Program-made: the position numbers and the translations under genes
Shown: positions 388 through 31,110 of the stretch, one piece after another
Numbering within the stretch: the first letter of the stretch is position 1
How the letters are laid out: every line of letters begins with the position of its first letter
The notes under the pieces: model-generated
The model's input: the letters and a program-made list of their open reading frames with translations, nothing else
Database searches by the model: none
Told to the model about the DNA's origin: nothing
Source: a virus
Lineage: Duplodnaviria > Heunggongvirae > Uroviricota > Caudoviricetes
Strand: one strand, 5' to 3'
DNA length: 33,201 nucleotides
Virus record (IMG/VR): IMGVR_UViG_2574180227_000019

Positions 388-395
388 TTAAAGGA

Positions 396-418: not shown

Positions 419-421
419 ACG

Positions 422-5811: not shown

Positions 5812-7216
5812 TGATCACCTCCACAGTACTTCCCCCCGGCACAAAAAGCGGGTCTGAAATGTTGTTACGACGCACAAAATGTTGCCAGCGGGTGCTGTTT
5901 CCTGTTTCACGGTACAGGGTTACCAGTGCAGGTTCTGTCGCCCGGACGGATACCTGTACAGCCCCCGGCAGGGAGACCGCCCTGACCGTAAGATCTTCTG
6001 TCAACGCCAGGCGGGCATCCCTGAGAGTCAGGGCTGTGGAGGTATACCCCAGCGCAGACAAATCCATGACCTGTAATTCAAGCGCATCACTCAAATCACG
6101 GTTGATACGCTCAACATCTGCGGCACTTTCCAGCCAGACAAGACCGGCTGACTTCGTGTTATTACTTGTCCGGGCTGTTTCAAGACTGATTACCTGATCC
6201 AGCAATTTTCCCACTGTCTGAGCCTGAGACACCACGGCTGCACTCTGCATCACTGCCCTGAGAAGCCGGATATTTTGTTGAGCTGGCGGGGTAAGCCCAA
6301 TCAGACGCTGTGGATCATCCTGTTCTGTCAGCGCATAACGCAGGGAGGATAAGGTTCTGTAGAGCTGAGGAAGTCCCTGTTCAAGGGTGCTCTGCATCAC
6401 CACATCCAGACTCCCTGCGGGCAATTCGCCTCCACTGCCTCTGGTGTAAACCGTACCGCCATTCCCCCCGGAAGCACCGGTTACGGTACTGCCGGTATTC
6501 TTCCGGGTAAGGGAGAGCGCAGGGATCGTGGGTAATGCCGTCAGGGTGACAAACATACCCGCCAGTGATTCCGCCATTCGCTGCGGACTTGTGAGCAATG
6601 CGGTAACGTTACCTTTAAGCGCCGTAAACGTGGCCGTAAAGGCACTGATATCCTGCACAATCCCCATCCCGGAAACGGAATTTTCCAGCGCCTCAATTTT
6701 GTCACTGATGGTTTCAGCCATTGCCTGCACATCATGCATACCATCGGAAATGACGGTCCAGCCACTTGCCAGCGTACCAAACATGCTGTTCAGGGCTGCA
6801 CCACTTCTGGCCTCCAGAAGTGCAGCCGTATCCTGGCTGGCCGTTGGCGCTGTTTCATCACTGACCGGAGACACATTAATTGTGAATTCAACAATGCGCT
6901 GTTCATCGGCGCTGTAACGGCTTTCAAAGCTGTTTATCATCACGTTTAAAGTGCCATATTCCGGGTGCATAAGTTCACCCGGCCCGGGGGCGCGAAGGGC
7001 ATCCCGAAGACGGCTTCGTTGCGTGTGAACATCCTCTCCCATCACCAGTACGGTGAAGGTGTATTCCGGCAGTTTTGGCCCCAGATCATCTGCACCGCCC
7101 CGTTCCTGTAACGGATATTCCCGGCGAACGATATTACGCCCACCGCGTTCACGCTGTTCGCGAAATACCAGGAATGGCACACCGCGAAACGACCCCTTGC
7201 CGTCACCAGTGGACAT
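5801..7216 (-). CDS. DNA circularisation protein N-like (Mu gp43-like)
   Basis: Start re-chosen at the ATG at 7214-7216 (MSTGDGKGSFRGVPFLVF...) with GGAGGT upstream, overlapping the tape-measure stop (ATGTCCACTGGTGA); the track's N-terminal extension is rejected. Confidence 0.6.
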   Translation of the reverse strand: MSTGDGKGSFRGVPFLVFREQRERGGRNIVRREYPLQERGGADDLGPKLPEYTFTVLVMGEDVHTQRSRLRDALRAPGPGELMHPEYGTLNVMINSFESRYSADEQRIVEFTINVSPVSDETAPTASQDTAALLEARSGAALNSMFGTLASGWTVISDGMHDVQAMAETISDKIEALENSVSGMGIVQDISAFTATFTALKGNVTALLTSPQRMAESLAGMFVTLTALPTIPALSLTRKNTGSTVTGASGGNGGTVYTRGSGGELPAGSLDVVMQSTLEQGLPQLYRTLSSLRYALTEQDDPQRLIGLTPPAQQNIRLLRAVMQSAAVVSQAQTVGKLLDQVISLETARTSNNTKSAGLVWLESAADVERINRDLSDALELQVMDLSALGYTSTALTLRDARLALTEDLTVRAVSLPGAVQVSVRATEPALVTLYRETGNSTRWQHFVRRNNISDPLFVPGGSTVEVISEQ

Positions 7217-9269
7217 AGTTACCTCCGTTCCAGACATCCACATCCAGCGAACTGCCGGAGGTTTCATTGATATCAATACTTCTTGCGCTCCAGCCATCCG
7301 GGGCAACCAGCTCCACACGGGCAGAAGCCTGTTCAGCGGCTTTTCCTCCGCTGTTATCGGTATCCCCCCGTAGTTTTTGCCAGGCTTCTGTCAGCCAGCC
7401 GCCGAGATAATTACCGAGATAACTTCCCACCGTTGAACCGATAGCCACGCCGACAGGTCCTGCCGCAGCTCCCAGCGCTCCACCGGCAATGCTGCCAGCA
7501 AGAGAGCCGACAGCCTCCCCCTTGTTGGTAGCACTGGCACTATCGTCCAGCAGGACAGGGGCGGCCATCGCCCCGGCCCAAAGGGCTCCACCGCCCAAAC
7601 GACCGGCAACCCCACCGGCACGGCGGAAAAGGCCGGAGAAACGCCCCATACCCAGCCGGTTACCGGCGGATGAAAGCAAGCCACCGGCACGGCTCATCAT
7701 GCGCCCGAAGAAGCCCTGAGGGGGTGAGGCTGGCGGCGTTGCCGGTACAGTAACAACCGACGTCACCGGGCGTCCGCGCCCCGGCCCGCGTCTGGTGCGT
7801 CCACGCTGACGTTTTCCTTCACCTCCGCTGATCACATCAGAAACGCCCCCCGCCATGGCACCGGCTGGCCAGTTCATGACATTTACGGGCTGAATGGCTG
7901 CGGGGTTAACCCCCGTCAGAAAATTCAGGAACCGACCGCCACGCCCCGGTATGGTTTCGGGAACGGTGGTCTGTGGTTTGCGGAAGGGGGAGGTCAGAAC
8001 AGAAGCGGTGGACATGCCCCAGCGAAGCGGTGTTGCACCAAGACGCAGCGCACTTCCACCAACAGCCCTGACCAGTTTCAGTGCCCGGGTGGCCAGATAC
8101 ATATACAGCAGATATTTCGCAGCTGTCTGTGCACCACGAGCGATACCGTCCAGCGTATCGCCATACCCTGCATCACGCAGCGCCTGAAGCGTTTCCCGTA
8201 CCTTCTGAATAGCCCGGTAAAAACCAGTTGCCGCATCACGGGCATACTCAAAGCCCTGATTCAGGGCACCCGCTGTCTGTGCCGCCAGTTTTTCCTGAAG
8301 ACCGCTGGACTTTGCCTCATCAGCATAATCCAGAAAGCCTTTAAGGCTGTTTTTAAGGCTGTCAAAAGGTCCTTTGGCCATGACGTCACGGGCAAAGTCA
8401 TCCCATACATCCCCCATCATGGCAGTCATGCCCGTCCAGGAGTTCATGGCATTTTTCTGTGCACCTTTTGCCTGTTCTGCCATGACCTGGAACAGGAGAC
8501 GAATGCTGTCCGGTCCCAGCTTACCTTTGCTACCCAGATCACGAAGTACTTTCTGATCAACTTTCAGTTTTTCAGCCAGCAACTGATAAACGTTGATACC
8601 GTAGCCCGTCAGAATACTGGCATCAGCCGCCTGAATTGCACCACGGGAATACATCTGTTTGAGCTGAAGGGATGCGCCCTGCGCGTCAGCAAGGGACCAG
8701 CCGTGATAGCCCCCCTGATCCTGAAGCATGGTGATAAAGTTACGTGCTTCCTTATCACTCATACCAAAACCACGGCTGGAAGCGTATTCCTGCATAACGC
8801 CAGCCAGCCCCCACGTGGTTTCTTTTGCATTCTGGACAGCCCACTTACGGACGTCTTCTGTTCTGGATGTATCACCATGATTGATGGCATTGAGACGAAG
8901 AATGTAATTCTCCATCTCTGATGCGGGACGAAGAAAAGCCTTGTTAAATCCGTACGCAGCCGCACCACCGGCCAGCATCCCGTAAAGGTTGCTGATACGT
9001 CCCAGCGTACCGGTAATACTTCCCTGAAGCCGGTCAAAATCAGAGGTGACTGAACGGATACTGCCACGGACTCCGGCAAGCATACGTTGCATACGGGTGC
9101 CAACAAGATCAGTTTCCTGACCGGCACGACGGGCTGCATTACCCAGACCACCCAGCCCCGACTGTCCGGAACGGGAAAATGCCCCCAGCTCCTGCGACCA
9201 CTGGCGAGATTTAGCGGAAATATTGCCGAGCAGATCGACTATCAGGGAGGCTTTCAGATTTTTTGCCAT
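7203..9269 (-). CDS. Tail tape measure protein
   Basis: 688 aa ORF downstream of tube and chaperone; Gly/Ala-rich C-terminal region; correct position in a contractile-tail module. Confidence 0.8.
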   Translation of the reverse strand: MAKNLKASLIVDLLGNISAKSRQWSQELGAFSRSGQSGLGGLGNAARRAGQETDLVGTRMQRMLAGVRGSIRSVTSDFDRLQGSITGTLGRISNLYGMLAGGAAAYGFNKAFLRPASEMENYILRLNAINHGDTSRTEDVRKWAVQNAKETTWGLAGVMQEYASSRGFGMSDKEARNFITMLQDQGGYHGWSLADAQGASLQLKQMYSRGAIQAADASILTGYGINVYQLLAEKLKVDQKVLRDLGSKGKLGPDSIRLLFQVMAEQAKGAQKNAMNSWTGMTAMMGDVWDDFARDVMAKGPFDSLKNSLKGFLDYADEAKSSGLQEKLAAQTAGALNQGFEYARDAATGFYRAIQKVRETLQALRDAGYGDTLDGIARGAQTAAKYLLYMYLATRALKLVRAVGGSALRLGATPLRWGMSTASVLTSPFRKPQTTVPETIPGRGGRFLNFLTGVNPAAIQPVNVMNWPAGAMAGGVSDVISGGEGKRQRGRTRRGPGRGRPVTSVVTVPATPPASPPQGFFGRMMSRAGGLLSSAGNRLGMGRFSGLFRRAGGVAGRLGGGALWAGAMAAPVLLDDSASATNKGEAVGSLAGSIAGGALGAAAGPVGVAIGSTVGSYLGNYLGGWLTEAWQKLRGDTDNSGGKAAEQASARVELVAPDGWSARSIDINETSGSSLDVDVWNGGNYVHW

Positions 9270-9275
9270 CGTTTA

Positions 9276-9485
9276 CTGCTTCGCTTTAAGGATTTTTTCC
9301 GTTTGTTGGCAGTGCCGGTAAAGTTGCGATAAGGGGAGGTTCAGCGCCCATTCCGGGCCGCTTTTCGTCACCATCCCCAGTACTATCGCCGCTTCTTCAA
9401 TCTGCGCCCGACACTGCGCCTGCTCGCCCCCGGTCAGCCGCCAGCTTTCCGGCCATGGCTGTATCCAGAATGCCGACCGCCGCCA
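9276..9485 (-). CDS. Candidate frameshift extension of the tail assembly chaperone (+1 frame relative to 9397..9873)
   Basis: Manual translation: the frame shared with the tape measure is open for 70 codons between stops at 9486-9488 and 9273-9275, overlapping the last 28 or so codons of the chaperone and ending 3 nt before the tape-measure ATG. The -1 frame is closed (stops at 9434-9436 and 9383-9385). Confidence 0.3.
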
Positions 9486-9873
9486 TCAGACGGGACAGGT
9501 CACGTTCACTCAACTGCCCAACCTGGCGGAGGGATAACGGTCCCTGAATCTCACCGACAGCGGCAATCTGACGGCGCAGAAGTGCAATCCCCCGTAGAGA
9601 GGGAGACGCAATCAGCATCGGACCGTTACGTGTATCCATCACTTTCTCGGCTTCTGATTCAGCATCAATGCTGTCTTTCGCGGTCAGTTCCCGGAATGTG
9701 ACACGGTATTCACGGCTTTCACCGCAGGGCAGACCATCCAGCAGATCCACATACCCATTAGCCAGTTGTTCAGTCAGACCGGCGGTGCGCGGATCGCCTC
9801 CTTCAAGCGCTTCACGAATGGCCTCCATGACGCCTTCGTCTGAAACCGCTGTTTTTTTCTTACGTGATGCCAT
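9397..9873 (-). CDS. Tail assembly chaperone-like protein (Mu gp41-like)
   Basis: 158 aa ORF between tail tube and tape measure, the conserved location of the chaperone gene. Confidence 0.5.
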   Translation of the reverse strand: MASRKKKTAVSDEGVMEAIREALEGGDPRTAGLTEQLANGYVDLLDGLPCGESREYRVTFRELTAKDSIDAESEAEKVMDTRNGPMLIASPSLRGIALLRRQIAAVGEIQGPLSLRQVGQLSERDLSRLMAAVGILDTAMAGKLAADRGRAGAVSGAD

Positions 9874-9882
9874 AACTGCTCC

Positions 9883-10248
9883 TTACTGAACACGGGTACT
9901 GGTTGCGCTGGCGAACTTCGCAGAGATATCGCCACCACCATCTAAAGACGCGGGCTCCACACTCCAGGCTTTGGTCATCATATGGACTTCACCGGTATCG
10001 GCGACGAATTCAATTGTGACTGCGTTCCAGCTGTTGATTTCATCCGTTGCCGGCGAGCCTTCACCACCGGCCGGAAATTTGCATTCCAGCGTGGCCTCAC
10101 GGGGTTTCTCCCGGTAACCGTAGACCTTTGCGCCTTTCACGGCTTCACGTTCAAAACCGGATGGCGAGAAGGTTGCGCCTTCCAGCGTGGCAAACTCCTG
10201 ACCGTTCACACGGATGGTTGCGGTCCCCTGATACTGTTTTCCGCTCAT
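9883..10248 (-). CDS. Tail tube protein (Mu M-like)
   Basis: 121 aa ORF immediately downstream of the sheath gene; size and position. Confidence 0.65.
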   Translation of the reverse strand: MSGKQYQGTATIRVNGQEFATLEGATFSPSGFEREAVKGAKVYGYREKPREATLECKFPAGGEGSPATDEINSWNAVTIEFVADTGEVHMMTKAWSVEPASLDGGGDISAKFASATSTRVQ

Positions 10249-10256
10249 GAATTACC

Positions 10257-11759
10257 TCACAAAATGAAACGGATCTGCGCGGCCATAAAGCGGAACTGGT
10301 TAACCAGGTCCGGTGTGCACAACACATCAAGGCGGTTGCGATCTGATGTGTTACGCTCCACGAGCAGATTCTTTTTAAAAGTGTCCAGGTTCTCGACCAA
10401 CCCCTGATCGACCCATTCCTCACCCAGAGCAATCAACTGAAGCGTCATGATTTCCGGGGTTACAATATTCTGTCCCGCGCTCACCGGTGTGCCATTATCC
10501 GCCAGCTTATGGCGCGGAAAACGCTGCGTGATGAACGTTCGCAGGGAGTAACGCAGATATGAAAGGGTGTAGACGGTTTCCACATCCAGATAGCTGGGGT
10601 CATTGTCTCCATAGGCGTTCTGACGATACATCGTCACCTGACGTTCGATTTGCACCACATCACCGGTTGCGACGGTTACTGTAGCGATACCGCTCCACAG
10701 CAGGCTGTTTCGCTCTTCACGGGTCAGACGATCCGCTGCGGCGGGTGCCAGTCGGGGCGTGATGGCCAGTGTCTGAAGTGGACGTGCCGGATCCGAAGAT
10801 AATGACGGTGCGCATGTCGCACACACCGAGGCTGCCCACAGATAATCGGGTTCCGGTGCTTTTGGAATAGCCGTACAGGTAGCAAGAAAATCGTTACGTT
10901 TTTCACCGAACGCCTGTACTTCTCCGAATGTGCCCGTGTGAGCCATCCAGATGACTCCATCGGACATTTTGACCGGTCCCCAGCGTTTCAGCAGTTCATC
11001 GCTGATCACCTTCAGGTTTGCGTCATCCTTATAGGGCATGACGATGTAGTTGTACTGACGATCCCCCATCCCCGCCACGCTGCGGGTGATATCCGGGTTT
11101 GTGGCCTTCTGTTTTGGAGATGTTATCTGCAATGTAAGGCCGGAAGGGGTGGTTTCACCGTCGTAATAGTTCACACGTAAATCATGAACTGAGCACTCAC
11201 CGGTAAAACGGGCATTCACCCCCATACTGCCTTTAAGGCCTTCAGCATTATCTCCACTGACTTCTGCTGCATAAGCCGTGAATGGTGCATCAACATCGGC
11301 GTTAATGACCTTCACAAGTGCTTCCACAAGCGCTTTACCTTTTTGCCCTGTACCGACAGCCAGCAGATAACGGCGACCACCAATATAGACGCATAACACA
11401 CCGTCTGCCGTCGCCGTACCAATGATATTCATCACACACGCCTGCGGCTGACCAGTGCCCGCCCCCTGGGCAATGGCATATAACTCTGTGTCGGGATTAA
11501 TGGCGATGAATTCCGCCACCATCAGCGCAATCATGGAACCACGCCCCCAAAGCTCTCTTGCCTGAGATGCACGGGTAATACGTACAGGAATGTCCAGTTG
11601 ACCGGAACCCTGTACGGCGGTGTCTTTCATGGCAGCCTGCCCGAACAGCAACACAGACTGACGTTGCGCCGGGGTGCCGGTGACGGCCATGGAATTATCA
11701 AATTCAATCTGTACAAGCGGGATGCGGTTATCATCCCCAATCTGATTAAAACTGATCAT
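10257..11759 (-). CDS. Contractile tail sheath protein (Mu L-like)
   Basis: 500 aa ORF, ATG at 11757-11759, followed by the tube gene; size and synteny. Confidence 0.75.
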   Translation of the reverse strand: MISFNQIGDDNRIPLVQIEFDNSMAVTGTPAQRQSVLLFGQAAMKDTAVQGSGQLDIPVRITRASQARELWGRGSMIALMVAEFIAINPDTELYAIAQGAGTGQPQACVMNIIGTATADGVLCVYIGGRRYLLAVGTGQKGKALVEALVKVINADVDAPFTAYAAEVSGDNAEGLKGSMGVNARFTGECSVHDLRVNYYDGETTPSGLTLQITSPKQKATNPDITRSVAGMGDRQYNYIVMPYKDDANLKVISDELLKRWGPVKMSDGVIWMAHTGTFGEVQAFGEKRNDFLATCTAIPKAPEPDYLWAASVCATCAPSLSSDPARPLQTLAITPRLAPAAADRLTREERNSLLWSGIATVTVATGDVVQIERQVTMYRQNAYGDNDPSYLDVETVYTLSYLRYSLRTFITQRFPRHKLADNGTPVSAGQNIVTPEIMTLQLIALGEEWVDQGLVENLDTFKKNLLVERNTSDRNRLDVLCTPDLVNQFRFMAAQIRFIL

Positions 11760-12037
11760 CAGAGCGTTTCCTCATCTGAGACTGCGGGGCCGGATACCGT
11801 GTCACTGTCCATAACCGGGTCGGCATTCATCGCCATGTCGTTATCACTGTTTTCTTCCGTCACGGCGGGAGCTTCACTTTCCGGCAGGCTTCCAGGCTGA
11901 ATGACATCGCCGTCATCAAGACGCCGACACCAGAACGGCGTGAAGGTTTTTTCCTCCCCCTCCTGTGCCAGCGGGCGCATTGTGTCGGGATCACGAATCA
12001 GGCGTCCCGGCGCGGGTTTGATAAAGATGGTTTTCAT
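11759..12037 (-). CDS. Hypothetical neck/tail protein (Mu gp38 position)
   Basis: 92 aa acidic ORF overlapping the sheath start by 1 nt; synteny only. Confidence 0.4.
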   Translation of the reverse strand: MKTIFIKPAPGRLIRDPDTMRPLAQEGEEKTFTPFWCRRLDDGDVIQPGSLPESEAPAVTEENSDNDMAMNADPVMDSDTVSGPAVSDEETL

Positions 12038-12598
12038 TTACAGTTCCTCCGGCGGTTCGACCGCCGTTGTCGTGTTCCCCGGCAAATCAATATGTGCCTC
12101 AAACGGCGGCGTACCGGGCGGCTCCACAAAGGTTTCGTAATGACGCAGGAAGTCGTCCAGCGAGCTGATATCGGTCAGCGGTGCGATCATTTCCTCGCAG
12201 GAGAAATAAAGCGCATACATCACCGCACCACTGTTCGCCTGGGTTTCGGTGTAACCGTTGACCGCCTTTTCAAAGTAAAGCGGTGAGGTTTTTTCGGTTC
12301 TGAAGCCGTTAAGCACGGCAATCAGCCGGGCCACAATCTGATACAGTCCGGGACGGCTGGCCTCACGCCCGTTGAGCATGTCGCCGATGACGTAGAACAC
12401 CCAGTGACTGACCAGGCGACCACGGGTACGGCCTTCACCGGCACCCAGCCAGGCAACGTAGATCGCCGGAGCGTTAATCAGCATGGTGCGCAGTACGCTG
12501 TCGCTCCAGTCGCCGGGATGCGTGTCAACAGACACAAGTTCATTCCCGAAATACTCACGGATACGGGCGATGTATGCCTGTTCGGTTTCCGTAATCAT
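12038..12598 (-). CDS. Head-tail joining protein (Mu gp37-like)
   Basis: 186 aa ORF; synteny only. Confidence 0.45.
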   Translation of the reverse strand: MITETEQAYIARIREYFGNELVSVDTHPGDWSDSVLRTMLINAPAIYVAWLGAGEGRTRGRLVSHWVFYVIGDMLNGREASRPGLYQIVARLIAVLNGFRTEKTSPLYFEKAVNGYTETQANSGAVMYALYFSCEEMIAPLTDISSLDDFLRHYETFVEPPGTPPFEAHIDLPGNTTTAVEPPEEL

Positions 12599-13014
12599 AT
12601 GAAGCCCTTCTGGTTGCGCCCGAATACCGCTGCATCAGACTGAACCTGTGGTAAATCCCCGGATTCAGGGGCCGCACCGTTCGTATCCACACCTACCGGC
12701 ACATTGCCGTTCATGACATCTTTCAGCCAGGCCAGCGCTTCACGGTAACGGTCACGCGCCTGATCGGAGGCTCGCTGATCGCACAGGTAATAAAAGGCAA
12801 TCGCGCAACAGTGCTGAACAAGAACAGCCGGGATAACCTCCAGCGGCAGCGTGTAACGGGCGGACAGATAGCTGTCGATAAGGGCTGACGCATCTGTCAG
12901 CGCCCGGTTCAGCTTGCGCGTGTCCAGCTCATCCGAACGGGGCACTGCCAGTAACGGCCTGAGCAAATCCTCGCGGTAACGCGCCCGCATATCGCTTTCA
13001 GTGGCGTAATTCAT
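12595..13014 (-). CDS. Head-tail connector protein (Mu gp36-like)
   Basis: 139 aa ORF; synteny only. Confidence 0.45.
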   Translation of the reverse strand: MNYATESDMRARYREDLLRPLLAVPRSDELDTRKLNRALTDASALIDSYLSARYTLPLEVIPAVLVQHCCAIAFYYLCDQRASDQARDRYREALAWLKDVMNGNVPVGVDTNGAAPESGDLPQVQSDAAVFGRNQKGFI

Positions 13015-13437: not shown

Positions 13438-14385
13438 TTACAGATAATCCGCGACAACCAGCTCCAGCTTGCCCTTCATCTCGTTAGAGACGGTGGCGTT
13501 TCCGTCTGCGAACAGTTCACGCTCCAGCAGCTGCACCGCCTGTTTTTCCAGCGAGGTGGGGACAACAATATGGGTGGGTTTGATGCCGAGCTTGCGGCCA
13601 CCGTCAGCGGTAAATTCGCGCATGGCTGACCAGCCGTGCCACAGTGCATCCAGCGTCAGCGGTGACTGCATCATGTAGGCCATCTGCCAGAAGCCGTAGC
13701 CCACATTGCGACGGGCGGAAGCACCGAACACAAATTCGTTATCGGTGAATGCGCGACCTTCATCGACTTTGGTCTGGGCAACCAGTTCAGCCTTACGGCG
13801 ATCCTGATAAATCAGCGGTTTGATTGCGCGTGAACAGTCGAGCAGATACCAGGCAGGACCGCTGTAATCCGCCTGTGCACCGACAGAGCCGGTTTTTGCC
13901 ACAAACATATTGCTGACCATCTGCGCATCCCCGGAGCCATCCACTTTGGGGTAAACAGGATGTTCGGTATCAAAGAAGTTCTGGCCGTCATAGCAGGCCG
14001 CATTAATCCCGTCACGAAGAGCAGCAAAGACCAGTTCATCCGGTTGTGCCGCAGCAGCGCGCCCCATCTCCTGGAACAACGGGGAATAAATACCGAGGTT
14101 ATCGTCTTCGAAGTCATCACGGTTAATGGCGACGGTGCCTTCAAAGGTTTTGTTCACGATGGCATAGCCATAGGCCTTCATCTTCTCGATGACGCGGGAG
14201 CCGATCCACTCACGGAACTGCGGGAACTGCCCCAGCCAGCCGTAGGTGTTGGATTTCGAGGTGGAGGGCACGGTCATCGCAATTTTTTTGTACTGCGACG
14301 GGGCCATGGACATCCCGGCCTGAAAATCAGAACGGTAGCCCGTCATCAGGGCGGTGATCATCGCCGGTGTAATCGGGGTAGGCAT
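13438..14385 (-). CDS. Major capsid protein (Mu T-like)
   Basis: 315 aa ORF directly after protease/scaffold gene I with 1 nt overlap; size and position match Mu T. Confidence 0.75.
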   Translation of the reverse strand: MPTPITPAMITALMTGYRSDFQAGMSMAPSQYKKIAMTVPSTSKSNTYGWLGQFPQFREWIGSRVIEKMKAYGYAIVNKTFEGTVAINRDDFEDDNLGIYSPLFQEMGRAAAAQPDELVFAALRDGINAACYDGQNFFDTEHPVYPKVDGSGDAQMVSNMFVAKTGSVGAQADYSGPAWYLLDCSRAIKPLIYQDRRKAELVAQTKVDEGRAFTDNEFVFGASARRNVGYGFWQMAYMMQSPLTLDALWHGWSAMREFTADGGRKLGIKPTHIVVPTSLEKQAVQLLERELFADGNATVSNEMKGKLELVVADYL

Positions 14386-15509
14386 TATTGCATTTCCTCT
14401 TTCATTTTCAGGAATTCGGCTTCGGTTTTACCCAGAAGATGGGCGGCGGCGATATCTTCAGCCGACAGCGAGGCGGTGGCGGTCTTTTTATCCGGCACGG
14501 TCACGGTGTCGGTCTGAAGACCGGTCAGAGCCGCAACCGGCTGGCGGGCGTCAAGCTGCGCAGAAAGTGCTGCAACGCCAATCTGTTGTCCGAGTCCTTC
14601 CATGTATCCGCGTTCGCTTTTGAAAATGCGTCCTTCGGACTCGGCCTTATCCAGCAACTGCTCCAGCGTGGTGCTGCCGTGCTGTGCCGACAGCGCGACA
14701 TATTCGGTACGCAGGGCGTTATACGTCTCAACGGGCACGTATTTCGTCAGATCAATACTGCCGCCAGCCGGTGTGCCTTTTGCGGTTTCCAGCTCTGCCG
14801 ACAGACTGGCGACCTGTGTTTTCAGGTTGTCGTGTGCATCCGCACGGGGTTTGATCCCGGTGAGGGCAGACAGCGCCGCCGTGCCCAGCTCCGGCGTAAA
14901 TTCGTCACCGTCAGCCACGGTCAGACCGAGCGCCGTCAGCAACTGGCGTAATTGCTCATTCATGGAGGTATCCTTTAAAGGAGGGTTTAAGGCGTTATAA
15001 AGGTCATCCGCCGACAGCGCGGCGACAGGATTCATGCCGGTCAGACCGGGGTCACCGGTAATAGCCAGCATCCGAAGTTCGACAGGTTCGCCGGTGTTCT
15101 CGTCATAGCCAATCACCGGTGAAAACCAGGGGAATTCGTTATTACGCAGATGTTCAAGGGCCGGAGGGTTCCACTTCGGGCGCACCTCGAAGCCACGCTC
15201 TTCACTGAAGCGGAAGTTTTCCGGTGAAGCCGTCACAAAACCGGCAGCCGGTGCCTGATGCCCCTTAATCAGGGTCTGGTGGTTGTAGTCAATTTTTACC
15301 GGCTGATTGAGCGCCACAACCCGGGATACCATGCGCTCAACGGTCGCACGGTTAATCAGCCAGCCTTCAGCCGGTTTTTCCGGGCGACCGTCACGGGCCT
15401 TTACCCGACCGGCTGGCATGATCTGACACCAGTCACCGTCCCCGTCTGCGGACAGGCTGATGGCATTCAGAATGGCATAAGCAAGTTTGGGCGTGTTTTT
15501 CGTCTTCAT
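14385..15509 (-). CDS. Prohead protease / scaffold protein (Mu I-like)
   Basis: 374 aa ORF between G and T; N-terminus MKTKNTPKLAYAILNAISLSADGDGDWCQIMPAGRVKA... resembles Mu gpI as remembered. Confidence 0.75.
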   Translation of the reverse strand: MKTKNTPKLAYAILNAISLSADGDGDWCQIMPAGRVKARDGRPEKPAEGWLINRATVERMVSRVVALNQPVKIDYNHQTLIKGHQAPAAGFVTASPENFRFSEERGFEVRPKWNPPALEHLRNNEFPWFSPVIGYDENTGEPVELRMLAITGDPGLTGMNPVAALSADDLYNALNPPLKDTSMNEQLRQLLTALGLTVADGDEFTPELGTAALSALTGIKPRADAHDNLKTQVASLSAELETAKGTPAGGSIDLTKYVPVETYNALRTEYVALSAQHGSTTLEQLLDKAESEGRIFKSERGYMEGLGQQIGVAALSAQLDARQPVAALTGLQTDTVTVPDKKTATASLSAEDIAAAHLLGKTEAEFLKMKEEMQ

Positions 15510-15654
15510 TCCGGCAGCATAAGCCGGGAATTTTCAGGGCGGGTTTTGCGGGATTTCAGGAAGTGCTTTCAGGGGAAAAATACAAAGGCGCTTCACGCAG
15601 ATTTTAAAGCCCGTTAAATACAGGTTAGAAAATCACGACACGCGCCTGAAGGGG

Positions 15655-15681
15655 GTAAGGTAATGCATTTGCATACCTTAA
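15655..15681. promoter_or_regulatory. Imperfect palindrome in the G-I intergenic region (candidate late-promoter operator or RNA hairpin)
   Basis: taaggta ... tacctta inverted repeat flanking the self-palindromic atgcat core, inside the 176 bp non-coding gap upstream of gene I. Confidence 0.25.
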
Positions 15682-15685
15682 ACAA

Positions 15686-16159
15686 TTAAGGCGTTTCTGT
15701 GGCCTTTTTAAAGCGTTTTCTGATTTCGTCCATGATCTCCTGTTCAGCCACCTCATCAAAGCCCATATACGGACGTGCGCCAATGGCTGCCAGTCCCGGT
15801 GGCATACCAGGCAGGCCACCCCACTGATGAATGGCTGCATAAGGTTCATTTGATCCAATCAGCGCCCAGGTATCGCCATAATCCGTGGTCAGGCGGCGGG
15901 CCAGATCGCCGTTCAGCGTCAGGATTTTGCCGGGCGTGTATCCCTTACGGGTACGCCACTTGCGGTAAGGATCTGACCAGTCATGCCAGCGTTCGCCGTC
16001 CGGCTCTTTTTCCTGTTCAAACGCCATTTCTGAGGATGACAGAAGGCTGGACGCCACACTGCGGGCCAGGTCTTTTCCGCCCCCCACAAACTGAAGCCGG
16101 GCAAACACCCGCTGGAGACGCGTAACGTCAACAACGACAGCGGCATCAATGGATGACAT
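15686..16159 (-). CDS. Virion morphogenesis protein (Mu G-like)
   Basis: 157 aa ORF, ATG at 16157-16159 with GGAGG upstream; position between F and I. Confidence 0.65.
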   Translation of the reverse strand: MSSIDAAVVVDVTRLQRVFARLQFVGGGKDLARSVASSLLSSSEMAFEQEKEPDGERWHDWSDPYRKWRTRKGYTPGKILTLNGDLARRLTTDYGDTWALIGSNEPYAAIHQWGGLPGMPPGLAAIGARPYMGFDEVAEQEIMDEIRKRFKKATETP

Positions 16160-16197
16160 ATTGCCTCCGTGAAACTACCTGGTTAAAATAAAAGCAG

Positions 16198-16282
16198 GTC
16201 GGTGTACTCTTAACTGGTAAAGCGGCGCCTGATGGTTTTTTCCTGAGGGATGTTTATGCGGGTTCGACCCCCGCCACCGACC
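16198..16282 (+). ncRNA. tRNA-like element (class II length), uncertain
   Basis: Perfect 7 bp acceptor-like stem (16198-16204 with 16275-16281), T-arm gcggg-ttcgacc-cccgc (16258-16274), T8 A9, GG in the D-loop, U33 and purine 37 around a GAT anticodon-like triplet. The anticodon stem pairs poorly (G-U pairs and mismatches) and the D-stem has one mismatch. Confidence 0.25.
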
Positions 16283-17607
16283 TACAATTCACCCTCCAGT
16301 AATTCCAGCTTTCCACCGCGCAGATCATCAAGTAATGCCTCCTTTTTGACTCTGTAGGCATTAATCACCACATCCAGCTTATCCGGCTGACGTTTCACAC
16401 TATAAGGCGCATTGACGGCAATCTTTGCCGTTCCGTCACGGGTTTCAGTGATGTAAAGCAGATTCTGATGGACATGATCCCACAGCACGGCATCAGGCGC
16501 GGCCAGCATTGCCGGTAATCGCCCGAAATCCTCCGGCGTCAGGGCAATGCCGTCATTCTGATGTTTCACGCTGTCCGCATGGAGCACATTTTTACCGCTC
16601 ATCGCCAGCAGGCGGGCCGGTGGCGTTCCCGTCCGGCTTTCCACCGCCTGCGCAATACTTTCGGTCATAAAGCCCAGCGTGCGGATATCGTGACCACCTC
16701 GCCGGGTCTTCATGATGTTTTTTGCCCAGATGCGGAACGCCAGCTGCCGCTCCGGGCTGTTGTTCATCTCCTGAACCACCATTTCCCGTAACGCCGGGCT
16801 TTTCACCTCGATCAGTTTACGGATCAGCGCCTGGTCTGTGCCGAACGCCGCCGAACCGGGGTTATATGACCAGCCCACATCCGGTGTCATGGTTCTGGTG
16901 CCATCTGAATATGTGGTCACCGGCATTTCTCTGACTTCTCCGGTCTGCTTATCCACGCCAGCCTCAACATTGCGGGTGGAGAGATGATCCTGACCGGATG
17001 AAACGGATAACCCCATTGCATCCAGACGGGCCTGAGATAATGGCCGGACACGGCAGCGGCAGTTCCAGCCATTGGGCGGGTAGTGTGTATTCCAGAACGG
17101 ATCGTCATAGCGGAATACCAGCCCGTTAAAGGCGGAATGTGCCGGGCGGGTGCGGCTGTCCATCACCGCCACATACTGCCAGAACGGATGCGTGTCCGTG
17201 TTGTTCATCATCTGCGTGTAACGCCCGGCATTGTAAGCCACACGGGTGTTCACGTTGTAAATCAGCGCCAGACGGCGGGGACTGCCCAGCTGCACTTCTT
17301 CCGCGTTACCGGCACTGTCCACCACAATCTGTTTTCCCCACCATCCCAGCTTTTGCAGGCGGGGTGTCAGCGTGCGAATAAATGCTTTCTGTGAAATTCC
17401 CTCATCAATGGCCCGCTGCACTTCGGCCTGTAACGTGGTCACCACATCCAGGCGTGCCGCTTTTGCTGCCGTGAATGAGCGGGCATGAACATCCGCGGCT
17501 GTTTCGAACCAGTTCCAGCTGATATGCGCCCCTTTGACACGGAAGTATGCTACCGCCTCTTTTGAGGGAAGCGTGGCGGCATAACCTAAATCAATCCCCT
17601 GTGTCAT
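16282..17607 (-). CDS. Head morphogenesis protein (Mu F-like)
   Basis: 441 aa ORF after portal; contains ...SRTRPAHSAFNGLVFRYDDPFWNTHYPPNGWNCRCRVRPL..., typical of the Mu F / minor head protein family as remembered. Confidence 0.75.
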   Translation of the reverse strand: MTQGIDLGYAATLPSKEAVAYFRVKGAHISWNWFETAADVHARSFTAAKAARLDVVTTLQAEVQRAIDEGISQKAFIRTLTPRLQKLGWWGKQIVVDSAGNAEEVQLGSPRRLALIYNVNTRVAYNAGRYTQMMNNTDTHPFWQYVAVMDSRTRPAHSAFNGLVFRYDDPFWNTHYPPNGWNCRCRVRPLSQARLDAMGLSVSSGQDHLSTRNVEAGVDKQTGEVREMPVTTYSDGTRTMTPDVGWSYNPGSAAFGTDQALIRKLIEVKSPALREMVVQEMNNSPERQLAFRIWAKNIMKTRRGGHDIRTLGFMTESIAQAVESRTGTPPARLLAMSGKNVLHADSVKHQNDGIALTPEDFGRLPAMLAAPDAVLWDHVHQNLLYITETRDGTAKIAVNAPYSVKRQPDKLDVVINAYRVKKEALLDDLRGGKLELLEGEL

Positions 17608-19189
17608 CCAGCATCCCCTTCATTTCCGCAGCAAACATGGCATCACTGAGCAGCGTCATCAGGCGGGAATCATCCATTTCACGATAAAGGGCAGGCAGGT
17701 CTGCCAGCGCATCCGCCAGCCCCCGCGTTCTGATGGCATCAATGACCGGCTCCAGTACCGGGTCGATGGCCTCCTGTAAGCGGCGGGCAGGCACCGCGTC
17801 CCCCATATCATCCAGTTCATCACGCGGCGTGCTTTTCGCTTCCGGCAGTCTGGCTGACAGCGCCGTCTGCTCTGTTTTTTCCTGTTTTTCCGGTGGTGTT
17901 TCCCTGTCGGTCTGAGCCGGTTCATTGCCACTCTGACGGACACGGAATATGGCTTCACCGGGCGTGGGCTGCGGAATACCCGTCTGCTCACGTATCCAGG
18001 GATCAGAAATATCCATCCCCGTACTGAGCTGCATCACCGCACTGGTGATTTTGGTGATATCCCCCGGTTCTTTTGTCTGGAAGCAGATACGTGGCAGACG
18101 GCGGATATCAATAGTGTGCGTGGTGTTCAGGGCGTACAGCGGATACACCAGATCGCGGTTCAGGGTTGCAGCCAGCTGTCGTAAATCAGAATCCCTGATT
18201 TCCCGGCGCACCTCGTTATGCACTTCACCCAGCGAGCGCGCGCCTTTGTCTCCGGCTTCCGTGGTCAGCGTGCCGCCGAGTATTGCTTTGGAGATGGAGC
18301 GCTCCCCCCACGAAATCATGGTTTCAAACGGATCGGCCTGACCGTTCGCGGCTGCCTGAAACTCCAGCGACATCCCGGCCGGGATGATCCCGCCTGTACG
18401 TCGCCCGATATCCATCACCGCCCGCATCAGGGCGCTTTTCTGCTCCGGTGTTGCCCCGGACGGGTATTTACCGACCTTCATCGGCAGGCCGTACACCTCC
18501 AGAAATTCAGCCAGATCGCGCACGGAATAGTTTTTGAAAATGAACGGCCAGATAAGCGTTCTGACAAGCCCTGTTGCGCCGCCGTAACCGGTGCGTGAAC
18601 GTGACTGATGCACTATCCAGCCAAAGGGCTGAAACGCCACCCCGGCATGGCTGCCGTCACGCAGCCGCAGTTCGCTCAAATCATCCGGGTTAAGGCAGAA
18701 ATGCCCGCTGTCACGCCAGCGGATGGCGCGGATGATGTGCATTTTACCGAGCATCCCGTGCTCAATCTCCATGCAGGAATAGCCTTTCAGGATGGCATCG
18801 GTGGCATCAAACAGCATGGCATCAAACCAGTCGGCGGAATGCAGGTATTCGTCGAGCATTTCCGCGTCCTTTTTCTCATTCGCGCTGGCGTTCGGGGGCG
18901 GCTCAATACTCCAGGGCACCCCCTGAATGGCAAGACGTCGCTTGCCCAGCTCTGCAAAAAGATGGGTATCCTTTTCTTCAATGTCAGCGGCCAGATCGGA
19001 CTGGGCAATCAGATCGCCACGTTCAGCCCCGCGAAGGCACTGTGCCGCCCGGTTCGGGGTGATACCCGAGGCCGGATGTTCAATATAACGGCTGGCAATC
19101 TGCGGAATATCCAGCACGGCACTCTGCATCTCCGGGTCAAAGGAGAAAGGTTTTCCGTCAAGATCAATTATGCATCCCACTACCAGCAC
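17591..19189 (-). CDS. Portal protein (Mu gp29-like)
   Basis: 532 aa ORF between terminase large subunit and F; GTG start in the track, true start uncertain. Confidence 0.75.
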   Translation of the reverse strand: MLVVGCIIDLDGKPFSFDPEMQSAVLDIPQIASRYIEHPASGITPNRAAQCLRGAERGDLIAQSDLAADIEEKDTHLFAELGKRRLAIQGVPWSIEPPPNASANEKKDAEMLDEYLHSADWFDAMLFDATDAILKGYSCMEIEHGMLGKMHIIRAIRWRDSGHFCLNPDDLSELRLRDGSHAGVAFQPFGWIVHQSRSRTGYGGATGLVRTLIWPFIFKNYSVRDLAEFLEVYGLPMKVGKYPSGATPEQKSALMRAVMDIGRRTGGIIPAGMSLEFQAAANGQADPFETMISWGERSISKAILGGTLTTEAGDKGARSLGEVHNEVRREIRDSDLRQLAATLNRDLVYPLYALNTTHTIDIRRLPRICFQTKEPGDITKITSAVMQLSTGMDISDPWIREQTGIPQPTPGEAIFRVRQSGNEPAQTDRETPPEKQEKTEQTALSARLPEAKSTPRDELDDMGDAVPARRLQEAIDPVLEPVIDAIRTRGLADALADLPALYREMDDSRLMTLLSDAMFAAEMKGMLDDTGD

Positions 19190-23972: not shown

Positions 23973-24482
23973 TTAACGGGGAAGTGATTTTTCATACTGC
24001 CTGCAAACGGCGTCATACCCCATCAGCGTGCGTTCGGGCATTCCCATCGCGGCCAGCATTTTGCGGCGGTGCCATCGCTTGAGACGCTCCAGCACATCTG
24101 AGGCCAGGGCGGGGTGTTGCTCCAGCCACTGCCAGTTTGCCACACCTTCGCCGCCGTTCTGCGCGGCCGTCTGCGATTTCACCCAGCGGTTAAGAGCGGT
24201 TTCCGCACCATCAGAGATAAAGCCCTGCCGGTGCATCACCTTCCAGATGGCGCGAATTTTAGCGGTCACCGTACCCGGTTTTAAGGCCCGGTTAACCGGG
24301 TTCTGACGCACTTTAAAACCGCGTTTTTTGAAAACATCCAGCACGCGGGACAACTCATCCGGTGACATATCCCGGCAGCTGGTTTTGCCGGTGGCTGCCA
24401 GCAGCACGAATGTATAAGTCTCATCATCCAGGGCAAGCTCGCGCTTTGCCACATGAATGGCGGATATCAGTTTTCCTCTCAT
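23973..24482 (-). CDS. GemA-like protein (Mu gp16 family)
   Basis: 169 aa ORF directly upstream of the Mor/C gene; sequence and position consistent with Mu GemA as remembered. Confidence 0.6.
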   Translation of the reverse strand: MRGKLISAIHVAKRELALDDETYTFVLLAATGKTSCRDMSPDELSRVLDVFKKRGFKVRQNPVNRALKPGTVTAKIRAIWKVMHRQGFISDGAETALNRWVKSQTAAQNGGEGVANWQWLEQHPALASDVLERLKRWHRRKMLAAMGMPERTLMGYDAVCRQYEKSLPR

Positions 24483-24775
24483 ACCGTATTTACCTTTTTA
24501 CGGACATGGAAAGCCTTTTCTGCCTCATCCCACCGGGCATGGTGTGTTGGCGGAATAATCATTATGTGCCAGCCATCTCTGGTTGTTATCCGGCAGAAAA
24601 ATTCACCGCTATATAACACAATGGCCTGCTGAATGAGCGCATCAGCCGCCCGTTCAACCGGATGTCTTTTATCAAAAAAGCAGATGATTTTTCGACATAA
24701 CCACCGGGTAATAACAAATGCGCCGAAAAAGGATGTGATATATAAGCACCAGAACAACAGAGAACTATTGTCCAT
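24479..24775 (-). CDS. Small membrane protein, unknown function
   Basis: 98 aa, strong AAGGAG Shine-Dalgarno, N-terminal hydrophobic helix (LLFWCLYITSFFGAFVI); ATGA-coupled to GemA. Confidence 0.5.
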   Translation of the reverse strand: MDNSSLLFWCLYITSFFGAFVITRWLCRKIICFFDKRHPVERAADALIQQAIVLYSGEFFCRITTRDGWHIMIIPPTHHARWDEAEKAFHVRKKVNTV

Positions 24776-24955
24776 TATCTTTCTCCTTATTCACTCTTCT
24801 GCGGCATTCGGCACAGTCATCAGGGCTTTCAAATGTATCCGGCTCGCGATTATGAGCCAGATATAACCACCGTCCACATATACTGATATTTTCGCCTGTT
24901 TTAAAAAAAATGATGCTTCCTGGCCATTAGTGGCCGCGCCCATCCAGCGGGTAGA

Positions 24956-25291
24956 CTATTCATTTGCTTTATCCTCCATACTGGAGAGAATCATATGTAT
25001 TAATGTCGGGCGTGGAGATATACGCATTTCATTAAGCGTCTGAAGGGCAGCAACAGCTGCCTGTTTATCGGTGCCTTTGGCAATTTCAGCAAGAGAATGC
25101 ACAATCCATAACGGGCTTAACGCTACGGCTGAATGCAGAATCATGTCATCCATAATAATTTCTGGCATATCCCGTTTGTCACATTCTTTATCCATAAAAG
25201 AAACAATTTTTTCTGCATCTTCCGGTTTCATGCCTCCGGCGATGAGAATTTTACGATATTCATAAGACGATCTTAATTCAATACTCATCAT
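24956..25291 (-). CDS. Hypothetical early protein
   Basis: 111 aa ORF in the AT-richer early block; no recognisable motif. Confidence 0.4.
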   Translation of the reverse strand: MMSIELRSSYEYRKILIAGGMKPEDAEKIVSFMDKECDKRDMPEIIMDDMILHSAVALSPLWIVHSLAEIAKGTDKQAAVAALQTLNEMRISPRPTLIHMILSSMEDKANE

Positions 25292-25303
25292 TCACCTGCC
25301 TGT

Positions 25304-25672
25304 TTAATCAGTTTCCAGTGCTTTGCTACGGGCAACAGCCTCACACTCAAAAAATACCGACTCCGGCACACGTTCTTTTAATTCACGAACAAGGAAGTTA
25401 TTAACGCGCTCGTGACATCTTATATTTCTTTCCTTTTCCTCCTGGCGTAATACAGCAAGGCGGTATTCAACAGTCCGGCGTTGTTTCTGAAAGACAGCCA
25501 GTGCTTTTCTGGCAGAGTTACGCCATGTATCATCACCACAGGGTGCGTATTCAAGCTGAAATTTAATCTCTTCAATGGTTTCTTTTATTTTTGCCAGCAA
25601 GCTAAGACAGTCGCTGATTGTCTTCAGTTTTTCATTATCAATATAACTTCTCACGCATTCACCTCCCGTCAT
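25304..25672 (-). CDS. Hypothetical early protein (coiled-coil)
   Basis: The track ORF runs to 25696 (GTG); the ATG at 25670-25672 forms an ATGA overlap with the upstream stop, and an in-frame GTG at 25654 has GGAGGT upstream. Start uncertain. Confidence 0.4.
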   Translation of the reverse strand: MTGGECVRSYIDNEKLKTISDCLSLLAKIKETIEEIKFQLEYAPCGDDTWRNSARKALAVFQKQRRTVEYRLAVLRQEEKERNIRCHERVNNFLVRELKERVPESVFFECEAVARSKALETD

Positions 25673-25980
25673 TCCGGTAAAGCTGAAATATGGCACCAGT
25701 GCGTCACCTGTCCGTCCTCATCTTCAAGGCAGGCTCCGGTTTCTTCATCAACAAAAAAGCCTTCATACCCCATATGGCCGATGCGCAGCTCCTGACGGTG
25801 ACCATACTGAACAATCAGCACGACAGCCTCCATATCAGGTGGGAAAGCATCATTCAGTGAATGCCAGGGATAACCGCGTAAATCCCCGAAATAAACACCG
25901 GTCAGCGTTCCGCCACAGAGCGGCATTCCGGCGGCACACACAAGAGGTTCATCTGATTCAACAAATAAGGTCGTTATCAT
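25669..25980 (-). CDS. Hypothetical early protein (possibly DUF551-like)
   Basis: 103 aa, ATGA-coupled to the upstream gene; the DUF551 resemblance is a weak impression from memory. Confidence 0.4.
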   Translation of the reverse strand: MITTLFVESDEPLVCAAGMPLCGGTLTGVYFGDLRGYPWHSLNDAFPPDMEAVVLIVQYGHRQELRIGHMGYEGFFVDEETGACLEDEDGQVTHWCHISALPE

Positions 25981-26528: not shown

Positions 26529-26531
26529 GCA

Positions 26532-27580: not shown

Positions 27581-27583
27581 GAA

Positions 27584-28126: not shown

Positions 28127-28223
28127 ATTTCCTGTTCCTTATTTTCAGTTTACAGGCGCAGGCAGTCCCCTGACGCGAGCGCCATAATTAAAATGAAGTG
28201 ATATTTAAAGATTTAATGCGGTG

Positions 28224-28754: not shown

Positions 28755-28765
28755 TTTGTTTTTCC

Positions 28766-29059: not shown

Positions 29060-29063
29060 GGAA

Positions 29064-29614: not shown

Positions 29615-29615
29615 C

Positions 29616-29870: not shown

Positions 29871-29882
29871 ATAACACCTCAT

Positions 29883-30104: not shown

Positions 30105-30106
30105 AA

Positions 30107-31039: not shown

Positions 31040-31077
31040 ATTATTAACCTCTCATTTGATACCTTGTTTAATCAAAT

Positions 31078-31107: not shown

Positions 31108-31110
31108 ATT

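Follow-up and report, generated by a model that had tools for sequence, protein, structure and literature searches.

What lies between the head genes F and G of this Mu-like prophage, on the strand opposite to them: a tRNA, the remains of one, or an RNA of another kind? In the window (the whole stretch of DNA analysed here, 33,201 nt, IMG/VR virus record IMGVR_UViG_2574180227_000019) practically every long ORF lies on the minus strand, and the start of G is separated from the stop of F by a gap of 122 nt (16160-16281). An original prediction, made from the letters of the sequence alone, had placed in this gap a tRNA-like element, antisense to the late genes and overlapping the F stop codon, and had hesitated between a decayed tRNA, a structure in the late mRNA and mere coincidence. 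The element is there. It fills the gap, its 3' end overlaps the F stop codon (16282-16284, CTA on the plus strand), and at its other side the translation start region of G, with a Shine-Dalgarno sequence GGAGG at 16164-16168 (minus strand), overlaps the putative -35 hexamer of the RNA gene (Table 1). We found no relative of F with a solved structure. The sequence comparisons described below give good support to the conclusion that the element is a real and conserved gene for an RNA of about 88 nt, which is shaped like a tRNA, cannot decode and has a predicted promoter of its own.

Detection by RNA finders and distribution among Mu-like phages

The interval 16196-16283 (plus strand) folds into a tRNA-like cloverleaf. 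The Rfam tRNA model (RF00005) aligns over its full length to 16198-16282 on the same strand with 27.4 bits, just under the curated gathering score of 29, and with 25 nt inside the anticodon arm where the model expects 13. The E-value of this match is 8e-4 for a 301-nt query against all families, which by arithmetic becomes about 2e-5 for the tRNA family alone across the whole window. At gathering thresholds no Rfam family matched anywhere in the window. ARAGORN with default settings found neither a tRNA nor a tmRNA, and its relaxed modes, one of the checks proposed at the outset, detected the same interval with mutually incompatible anticodons: -ps80 reported 'tRNA-?(Ser|Ile)(ga)' with an 8-bp acceptor, and -i -ps90 reported 'tRNA-Lys(ttt)' with a 4-nt intron. 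The C4 family was not among the Rfam matches in 16100-16400 with E up to 10, and tmRNA, tRNA-Sec, C4 and other Rfam families were ruled out as no matches to them were obtained (ARAGORN tmRNA search, Rfam). Since the folding energy of the single sequence is ordinary on both strands (z = -0.85), the case for an RNA gene rests on comparative data.

The 301-nt query retrieved homologues in 176 RefSeq records, among them 175 of 5,426 complete E. coli genomes. Among the matches listed, all carry a PGAP annotation 'tRNA-OTHER', a label for an undetermined type, between 'phage head morphogenesis protein' and 'phage virion morphogenesis protein'. One RefSeq genome is identical to the window over 14850-16475 and has its 'tRNA-OTHER' at exactly 16198..16282 (plus strand); as collinearity between this genome and the window is limited to about 13-24 kb, its annotation was not transferred beyond that part. 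In E. coli O157:H7 Sakai the element is found in prophage Sp18, at 5058638-5058723 on the minus strand of NC_002695.2 and between ECs_4971 and ECs_4972, where the curated record leaves it unannotated. A search of the full-text literature on tRNA-like RNAs in Mu-like prophages, Sp18, pseudo-tRNA, tRNA decoys and anti-defence RNAs returned no description of it. The element is thus already flagged by machine in the databases, and we found no study of it in the full-text literature.

Table 1. Coordinates of the RNA element, its predicted promoter and the neighbouring genes in the window.
Feature	Positions	Strand	Basis or remark
Portal gene	17591-19189		in the neighbourhood of the RNA element
Gene F, MuF minor head protein, 441 aa	16282..17607	-	Pfam Phage_Mu_F and MuF_C
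Predicted promoter, -35 hexamer TTGCCT	16161..16166	+	overlaps the G Shine-Dalgarno sequence (GGAGG, minus strand)
Predicted promoter, -10 hexamer TAAAAT	16184..16189	+	predicted start ~16196
Closing (acceptor-type) helix, 5' strand AGGUCGGUG, positions -2, -1, 1-7	16196..16204	+	pairs with 16275-16283; 8 of 9 pairs with compensatory changes
U8 A9 connector	16205..16206	+	invariant in alignments A2 and A3
D arm	16207..16225	+	RNAalifold consensus
D stem	C16207-G16225, U16208·G16224, bulged C16223, C16209-G16222, U16210-A16221, U16211-A16220	+	RNAalifold consensus
D loop AACUGGUA with GG	16212-16219	+	invariant in A3
Central arm in place of the anticodon arm: irregular hairpin, tandem G·A internal loop, UUUUUU apical loop (16236-16241)	16226..16252	+	constrained folds, alignments
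Connector UUUAU (variable-loop equivalent)	16253..16257	+	final UAU conserved
T arm GCGGG-UUCGACC-CCCGC	16258..16274	+	stem covaries; UUCGA of the loop nearly invariant
Closing helix, 3' strand CACCGACCU, positions 66-74	16275..16283	+	followed by UAC...; CCA not encoded
Gene G, virion morphogenesis / tail-completion family, 157 aa	15686..16159	-	Pfam Phage_tail_S
Protease I gene	14385-15509		in the neighbourhood of the RNA element
Major head protein T gene	13438-14385		in the neighbourhood of the RNA element

Homologues for comparison came from E. coli variants, Edwardsiella anguillarum, Pasteurella phage Pmp9, IMG/VR and metagenome contigs retrieved by DNA patterns, and 80 IMG/VR loci retrieved with an F protein profile. 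Other routes were less productive: G as a single-protein query against genome contigs gave 2 loci only, an initial loose DNA pattern in IMG/VR returned mostly ordinary phage tRNAs, and a D-arm pattern run on metagenomes also matched an unrelated coding gene. A covariance model built from 18 variants was run on the 80 Mu-like loci sampled with the F profile, where F identities range from 41 to 99%, and found the element in 53 of them. All matches lie on the strand opposite to F and start at most a few bases away from its stop codon, and the site is kept while F drops to about 41-48% identity.

In loci with the element, F and G are separated by 85-147 nt (by about 574 nt where an additional ORF has entered the gap), whereas in loci without it the two genes mostly overlap or lie at most 26 nt apart, as they do in the D108 and SfMu-type loci. 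In phage Mu the two genes share ATGA, and the overlap accounts for the lack of the element there. Presence is therefore all-or-none: a gap that holds the gene, or no gap. Two loci (L283, L272) gave weak matches at the expected place, and in two others (L266, L269) the slot is occupied by a different cloverleaf-like RNA; these two, Rhizobium phage RR1-B and Mannheimia phage 3927AP2 hold other small structured sequences with -10 boxes between F and G. Family-like copies also occur outside the F-G context (L081, L069), and duplicated copies carry along a piece of the F C-terminus. When loci are ordered by F/G similarity, carriers and non-carriers are interleaved, which indicates that the gene has been precisely lost several times and hence that it is dispensable for phage growth, at least in Mu. 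A predicted promoter of its own, a site between two genes of an operon and absence from close relatives are the features by which we judged whether the element behaves as a moron, and it has all three.

Covariation, strand and predicted promoter

In an alignment of 39 distinct members from the 80 F loci, 96.1% of the pair cells are standard pairs, against 72% in shuffled alignments and 38-45% when the pairing partners were slid. Compensatory changes, with both sides changed, are seen at 15 of 18 pairs, and the covariation score is 0.709 versus 0.239 in shuffles, none of 500 reaching the observed score. A set of 23 distinct members behaves alike (93.9% of cells paired, 40-54% in the slid controls, 11 pairs with compensatory changes, the observed value reached by 0 of 500 shuffles on any measure), and a set of 18 sequences gives the same picture as the set of 23. 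RNAalifold, run independently, recovered a 9-bp helix, the T arm and a covarying D stem. Little or no variation is seen in U8, A9, the D-loop GG and the T-loop UUCGA, even in members whose F is only 31-48% identical. Strong covariation with conserved stems across homologous phages, together with the full-length Rfam alignment, bears out the tRNA-like element that had been proposed for the antisense strand. Because compensatory mutations preserve the fold in most of the Mu-like phages sampled, we regard the element as functional.

The same alignments indicate which strand is the RNA. G·U pairs within the helices number 48 when the plus strand is read and 8 when the minus strand is read; in a smaller set the figures are 27 and 1. 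This asymmetry, plus the fact that the tRNA loop signatures read correctly only on the plus strand, points to the plus strand as the RNA, antisense to the late mRNA.

Upstream of the cloverleaf, TTGCCT and TAAAAT with a 17-nt spacer (16161-16189, plus strand) form the only sigma-70-like site in 15900-17000, and the start predicted from it is the first paired base of the closing helix. A promoter matching at 9/12 or better, with its -10 box ending 3-11 nt before the first paired base, is found in 37 of 53 distinct members, against 1.1% at random positions of the same loci. In most of the family a -35-like hexamer stands 16-18 nt upstream of the -10; the -10 boxes themselves vary (TAAAAT, TATACT, TATAAT and one TGnTATAAT) at a constant position. 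The predicted transcript has no leader or one of 1-2 nt. Since this conserved predicted promoter points in the plus direction, the RNA would be the product of its own gene and not a part of the late transcript.

A scan of the region detected no terminator after the RNA gene. Synonymous diversity in the last 20-40 codons of F, into whose antisense a transcript would run, is 0.51-0.62 compared with 0.45 over the gene, that is, not reduced, and constraint seems to be confined to the tRNA-like body. On these two grounds we dropped the idea of a conserved trailer RNA or a terminator downstream in the antisense of F.

A tRNA-like body with a closed end and a variable central hairpin

The original prediction had pointed to a canonical T arm (GCGGG-TTCGACC-CCCGC), to T8 A9 and to the GG of the D loop, and all of these are present in the sequence. 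As in a tRNA, the T arm has a 5-bp stem and a 7-nt loop of the UUCRAnn type; the stem covaries (C-G to U-A, G-C to A-U, G-C to G·U) and the loop hardly varies. Of the nucleotides that form the tertiary core of tRNA (G18 G19, U8, A14), the family keeps U8, A9 and the D loop AACUGGUA unchanged in alignment A3. The D stem departs from that of tRNA by an extra C-G pair and a bulge. Its pair 13:31 is C-G in 23/23 members, and pair 14:30 covaries (UG 11, GC 6, UA 5).

The two ends that a tRNA uses in translation are different. The perfect 7-bp acceptor stem that had been noticed, GTCGGTG/CACCGAC, is indeed perfect, and is only part of the helix: A16196-U16283 and G16197-C16282 also pair and covary, which makes 9 bp in the window; the terminal helix is of 8-9 bp family-wide. 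Instead of the 7 bp, unpaired position 73 and 3' CCA of a tRNA acceptor, -1:73 is paired in 39 of 39 members (GC 23, AU 9, UA 5, CG 1, GU 1) and -2:74 in 34 of 39 (AU 15, CG 12, GC 6, GU 1), whereas -3:75 pairs at chance level save in one lineage whose helices reach 10 bp. CCA is not encoded in any F-G member; position 73 is followed by UAC, GUU, UUA and the like. The conserved G-1:C73 of tRNA-His is not found either, since the two bases pair in every member but are G-C in only 23 of 39. Similarly, the mark of a tmRNA is missing, with pair 3:70 being CG in 23 members, UA in 10, GC in 3, AU in 1 and never G·U, in an RNA of only about 88 nt.

The 5-bp stem, 7-nt loop and U33 of an anticodon arm are likewise missing. 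The GAT triplet that had been read as an anticodon flanked by U33 and R37 falls inside the tandem G·A internal loop of a long hairpin, without a 7-nt anticodon loop. Constrained folds of 18 variants and the alignments give central hairpins of 5-11 bp with internal loops, capped by tetraloops (UUCG, UCCG, CUUG, GUAA, GCAA), by triloops or by loops of 6-10 nt; they vary in length and sequence and cannot be aligned between subfamilies, and a 7-nt loop with U33 and a purine at 37 occurs in none of those examined. What had looked like decay of the anticodon stem is a hairpin that keeps its structure and varies in sequence. An intron or an enlarged anticodon loop in an otherwise ordinary tRNA is ruled out by these unrelated and often tetraloop-capped hairpins, the 4-nt 'intron' of ARAGORN being arbitrary. 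GGA motifs of the CsrA type were seen by eye in the central arm of some variants, but are missing from others and were dropped.

Decoding is excluded by the 8-9-bp terminal helix in which 73 is always paired, by the lack of an encoded CCA and by the variable hairpin that stands for the anticodon arm. In practical terms, thousands of features now labelled 'tRNA-OTHER' in the genomes of E. coli and others do not represent tRNAs and have no place in tRNA counts.

Possible functions and comparison with known RNAs

Phage tRNA genes are usually ascribed to codon supply or, lately, to escape from tRNA-cleaving defences. This RNA cannot decode, yet its tRNA shape is selected across divergent phages and hosts, so its value must lie in being recognized as a tRNA body. 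The reading that we prefer, at a probability of roughly 35-40%, is that it imitates the tRNA body and acts in trans. Host RNA polymerase with sigma-70 would start at about 16196, on the first base of the closing helix, so that the 5' triphosphate would be buried in a duplex and trimming by RNase P would be unnecessary. Transcription would run into the antisense of F, where the untranslated tail would probably be ended by Rho and then trimmed by 3' exonucleases back to the stable body. The parts under selection would be the D-loop/T-loop elbow, the tertiary core and the coaxial stack of closing helix and T stem (13-14 bp), while the paired 73, the missing CCA and the central hairpin would keep the RNA off synthetases, EF-Tu and the ribosome. 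It may occupy or recruit a bacterially universal factor that reads tRNA shape; candidate partners are enzymes that process or modify tRNA, and toxins or defence effectors directed at tRNA. The G+C of the members, from 0.46 to 0.72, speaks for many hosts and hence for a universal target. The RNA would be produced constitutively, in the lysogen and upon infection, as an accessory 'RNA moron'. In a more specific form, which we put forward tentatively, the gene would be dedicated to an anticodon-less, closed-ended tRNA mimic serving as decoy or inhibitor of a universal tRNA-recognising protein such as a defence toxin or a processing enzyme.

Action in trans is favoured by the copies outside the F-G context, and by hyperstable tetraloops and a closed helix that are poorly suited to antisense kissing; the element-less loci scattered among carriers and the wide G+C of the members fit an accessory trans-acting RNA. 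On the other hand, many tRNA-binding enzymes require a free 3' end, which is apparently absent here, the repeated loss of the element weighs against the mimic, and its strict site and orientation, as well as the other structured sequences with -10 boxes in the same slot, also fit a role in cis.

Such a cis-acting antisense unit is the strongest rival, though we consider it rather unlikely. Either its constitutive promoter would fire against the late operon or its transcript would pair with the F-G junction of the late mRNA, tuning or silencing F/G or processing the late transcript, and the tRNA fold would be a stable 5' module and processing signal. Several observations agree with this: it is always antisense and exactly between the F stop and the G start, its -35 lies over the ribosome-binding region of G, some phages hold other small structured sequences with -10 boxes there, and duplicated copies accompany a piece of the F C-terminus. 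There is also precedent in the antisense immunity RNAs C4 of P1/P7 and CI of P4, which are tRNA-like substrates of RNase P. However, neither stability nor pairing as such needs the tertiary nucleotides of tRNA (GG, UUCGA, U8, A9) that are under selection, and apical tetraloops (UUCG, CUUG, GNRA) together with a closed terminal helix disfavour the initiation of loop-loop pairing. Moreover, family-like copies exist away from F (L081, L069), and Mu manages without the element, its F and G simply overlapping. The orientation has another explanation too, as antisense is the sole way to have a constitutive promoter in the late operon without switching on the late genes. Two further ideas about the neighbourhood were abandoned. 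The idea that the RNA is an 'immunity' partner of MuF_C in F was dropped since Mu, whose F is 60% identical over its full length and has the same domain, has no RNA gene, and a connection with the strong gyrase site at the centre of Mu was discarded because that site lies between G and I and not between F and G.

Trans action as a mimic of the tRNA body should also be set against a chargeable acceptor of the tRNA-His type, in which RNase P or the site of initiation would leave an extra -1 base opposite 73, the 3' end would be trimmed, CCA added and the RNA aminoacylated, for some non-ribosomal use or for sequestration of the synthetase. A paired -1:73 is the hallmark of tRNA-His, and the pair is G-C in the window as in the 23 members counted above; among the tRNA genes of phage T4 are some without CCA, which the host then adds, and L069, a relative out of context, encodes ACCA. 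We nevertheless find this improbable. In 16 of the 39 members -1:73 is A-U, U-A, C-G or G·U, so that His identity is not conserved; the covariation of -2:74, and in one lineage of -3:75, would be pointless if these bases were replaced by CCA; the G3·U70 pair is absent; and the predicted start leaves a leader of only 0-2 nt.

Still less probable is that the functional molecule is the complement, located in the late mRNA, where it would serve for processing or stabilisation between the cistrons of F and G in the manner of the 't-elements' of plant mitochondria. The reverse complement does form most helices (90.3% of cells paired, -25.2 kcal/mol) and would stand 26 nt upstream of the G Shine-Dalgarno sequence, but the G·U asymmetry given above means that mismatches accumulate on the mRNA strand, the conserved predicted promoter points the opposite way, and the invariant GG and UUCGA loops are correct only on the plus strand; the structure in the late mRNA first suggested was thus assigned to the wrong strand. 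Finally, a decaying tRNA pseudogene or a functionless chance resemblance, which would explain the score below the Rfam threshold, the silence of default ARAGORN and the unexceptional folding z-score, is refuted by the comparative data, namely the compensatory changes at 15 of 18 pairs that no shuffle equalled, the invariant loops among F proteins 41-99% identical, the conserved predicted promoter, and the all-or-none presence in gaps of about 85-150 nt, at a site that stays constant although F identity falls to about 41-48%.

We then compared the RNA with systems already described. With canonical bacterial tRNA it shares the 5-bp T stem, the 7-nt UUCGAnn loop, the GG of the D loop, U8, A9 and a size within 76-94 nt, and it differs from it in the paired 73, the lack of an encoded CCA and of an anticodon stem and loop, the altered D stem and the predicted start at the helix. 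C4 and CI are, like it, small phage RNAs with tRNA-like features that act outside translation, and they are handled by tRNA-processing enzymes; they pair through conserved single-stranded loops, whereas the only variable loop of the element is often a closed tetraloop. The T4 stable RNAs 'species 1 and 2' are also phage-encoded with tRNA-like ends, and are set apart by their description: they are larger, belong to the tRNA cluster, are co-transcribed with tRNAs and processed by RNase P, and have a CCA end. Among eukaryotic viruses, the TMER tRNA-like units of gammaherpesviruses are non-decoding tRNA mimics. These units, mascRNA and menRNA are eukaryotic or eukaryotic-viral, are excised by RNase P and RNase Z and receive CCA, in contrast to what is apparently a closed-end primary transcript here. 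The likeness to mascRNA and menRNA is that these too mimic tRNA without decoding, keep the elbow intact and have an anticodon arm that is shortened or altered (PMC11693755, PMC8457004).

Mimicry of the acceptor, T and D parts without an anticodon is known in bacteria and phages from the tRNA-like domain of tmRNA and from YrlA (bioRxiv 10.1101/312249). The G3·U70, CCA, alanine charging and tag reading frame of tmRNA are all missing from the element, and in YrlA the 5' and 3' ends form a Ro-binding stem and not an acceptor helix (bioRxiv 10.1101/312249). Acceptor stems longer than 7 bp occur in tRNA-His, with -1:73 paired as here, in tRNA-Sec (8 bp for both) and in the 8/4 and 9/3 tRNAs (Mukai et al., PMC5389517); in all of these the acceptor/T stack is still of 12 or 13 bp, the 3' CCA is free and the anticodon works (PMC5389517), while the element has a stack of 13-14 bp (8-9 + 5), no fixed identity at -1:73 and no anticodon. 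The tRNAOther of Bacillus cereus is a chromosomal 'pseudo-tRNA' that does not take part in translation and affects cell physiology (PMC3399842). It shares with the element the finder label 'Other', the non-translational nature and the tie to mobile DNA (PMC3399842), and is set apart by its description, being an island-flanking gene of an unrelated host, unlike an RNA without an anticodon loop and with a closed acceptor end.

The element is therefore outside all the systems compared. It resembles the non-decoding tRNA mimics most and also brings to mind the tRNA-like C4 and CI RNAs, and it is distinguished by the closed 8-9-bp terminal helix, the absence of an anticodon loop, the predicted start at the helix and the fixed niche in Mu-like phages. 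If it is indeed a decoy or inhibitor of a tRNA-recognising protein, it would represent a new class of phage regulatory or counter-defence RNA. Its partner might lead to a new mode of phage interference with the tRNA biology of the host or with immunity directed at tRNAs; otherwise, the element may stand for a new kind of antisense control among transposable phages. Either possibility is directly testable, as the gene is present in the well-studied E. coli O157:H7 Sakai, in prophage Sp18, and in the cultured Pasteurella phage Pmp9.

Paired copies of the tRNA-like gene

In two metagenome contigs, L053 and L040, the tRNA-like gene is present twice (see table), every copy having its own predicted promoter (TATAAT or TATACT), and in both contigs the paired copies lie on either side of a fragment with homology to the C-terminal region of F. 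The closing helix is common to both L053 copies, while their central arms, D loops and T loops differ. Such a combination suggests that the copies arose by recombination of alleles at this site rather than by simple recent duplication.

Family-like copies and possible relatives elsewhere

The family model also gave strong matches in two contigs in which the F-G context is absent. The L081 copy (78 bits) has a predicted TGnTATAAT promoter and is followed on the same strand by a gene for a 287-aa membrane protein, for which no match was found in Pfam. In the L069 copy (60 bits) the central hairpin is capped by GUAA and, in contrast to the phage copies, ACCA is encoded 3' of the acceptor stem.

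The D arm of the tRNA-like gene, GCUUAACUGGUAAAGC, is shared with odd tRNA-like genes in two further IMG/VR phage contigs, L108 and L120, listed by ARAGORN as 'tRNA-His(atg)' (86 nt) and 'tRNA-???'. These genes may be relatives of the family or else other non-standard phage tRNAs.

Features in the compared contigs and in the window
Feature	Location	Strand	Remark
tRNA-like gene, two copies	L053 1203-1281 and 1541-1623	-	metagenome contig
tRNA-like gene, two copies	L040 120-197 and 754-833	-	metagenome contig
Family-model match	L081 319-398	+	no F-G context
Family-model match	L069 640-718	-	no F-G context
Odd tRNA-like gene	L108 8498-8586	+	shared D arm
Odd tRNA-like gene	L120 4340-4415	+	shared D arm
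Cloverleaf-like F-G gap sequence	L266 2824-2963	-	resembles another cloverleaf
Cloverleaf-like F-G gap sequence	L269 2824-2948	-	resembles another cloverleaf
Structured F-G gap sequence	L290 957-1059		Rhizobium phage RR1-B
Structured F-G gap sequence	L288 1015-1164		Mannheimia phage vB_MhM_3927AP2
Region with ORF-bearing insert	L272, L279, L280, about 2815-3400		between RNA gene and G
F C-terminal motif coding stretch	window 16285-16320	-	directly adjoins RNA gene
G-I gap	window 15510-15685		176 nt, non-coding, downstream of G

Other occupants of the F-G junction

F and G are 100-150 nt apart in some Mu-like phages, and the gap contains a -10-like box oriented as in the tRNA-like gene. The structured gap sequences of L266, L269, L290 and L288 did not match the family model; that of Rhizobium phage RR1-B contains a UUCG hairpin and a terminator-like GGCCGG...CCGGCC-UUUU. 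The slot may host different small RNA genes. In three other loci an insert of ~450 nt with an ORF separates the RNA gene from G, and the junction therefore tolerates protein-coding inserts as well.

Surroundings of the element

Across highly divergent phages, F proteins terminate in a conserved GGxLE(L/V)LEG motif followed by 1-4 residues. The NZ_CP053731.1 prophage, identical to the window around the element, is collinear with it only over ~13-24 kb; indels or mosaic replacement set the two apart in the tail and early regions (window 1-13000 and 24000-33201). The phage Mu counterpart of the G-I gap holds the central strong gyrase site, 20 nt after G according to the NC_000929 annotation, and also the late promoter for I.
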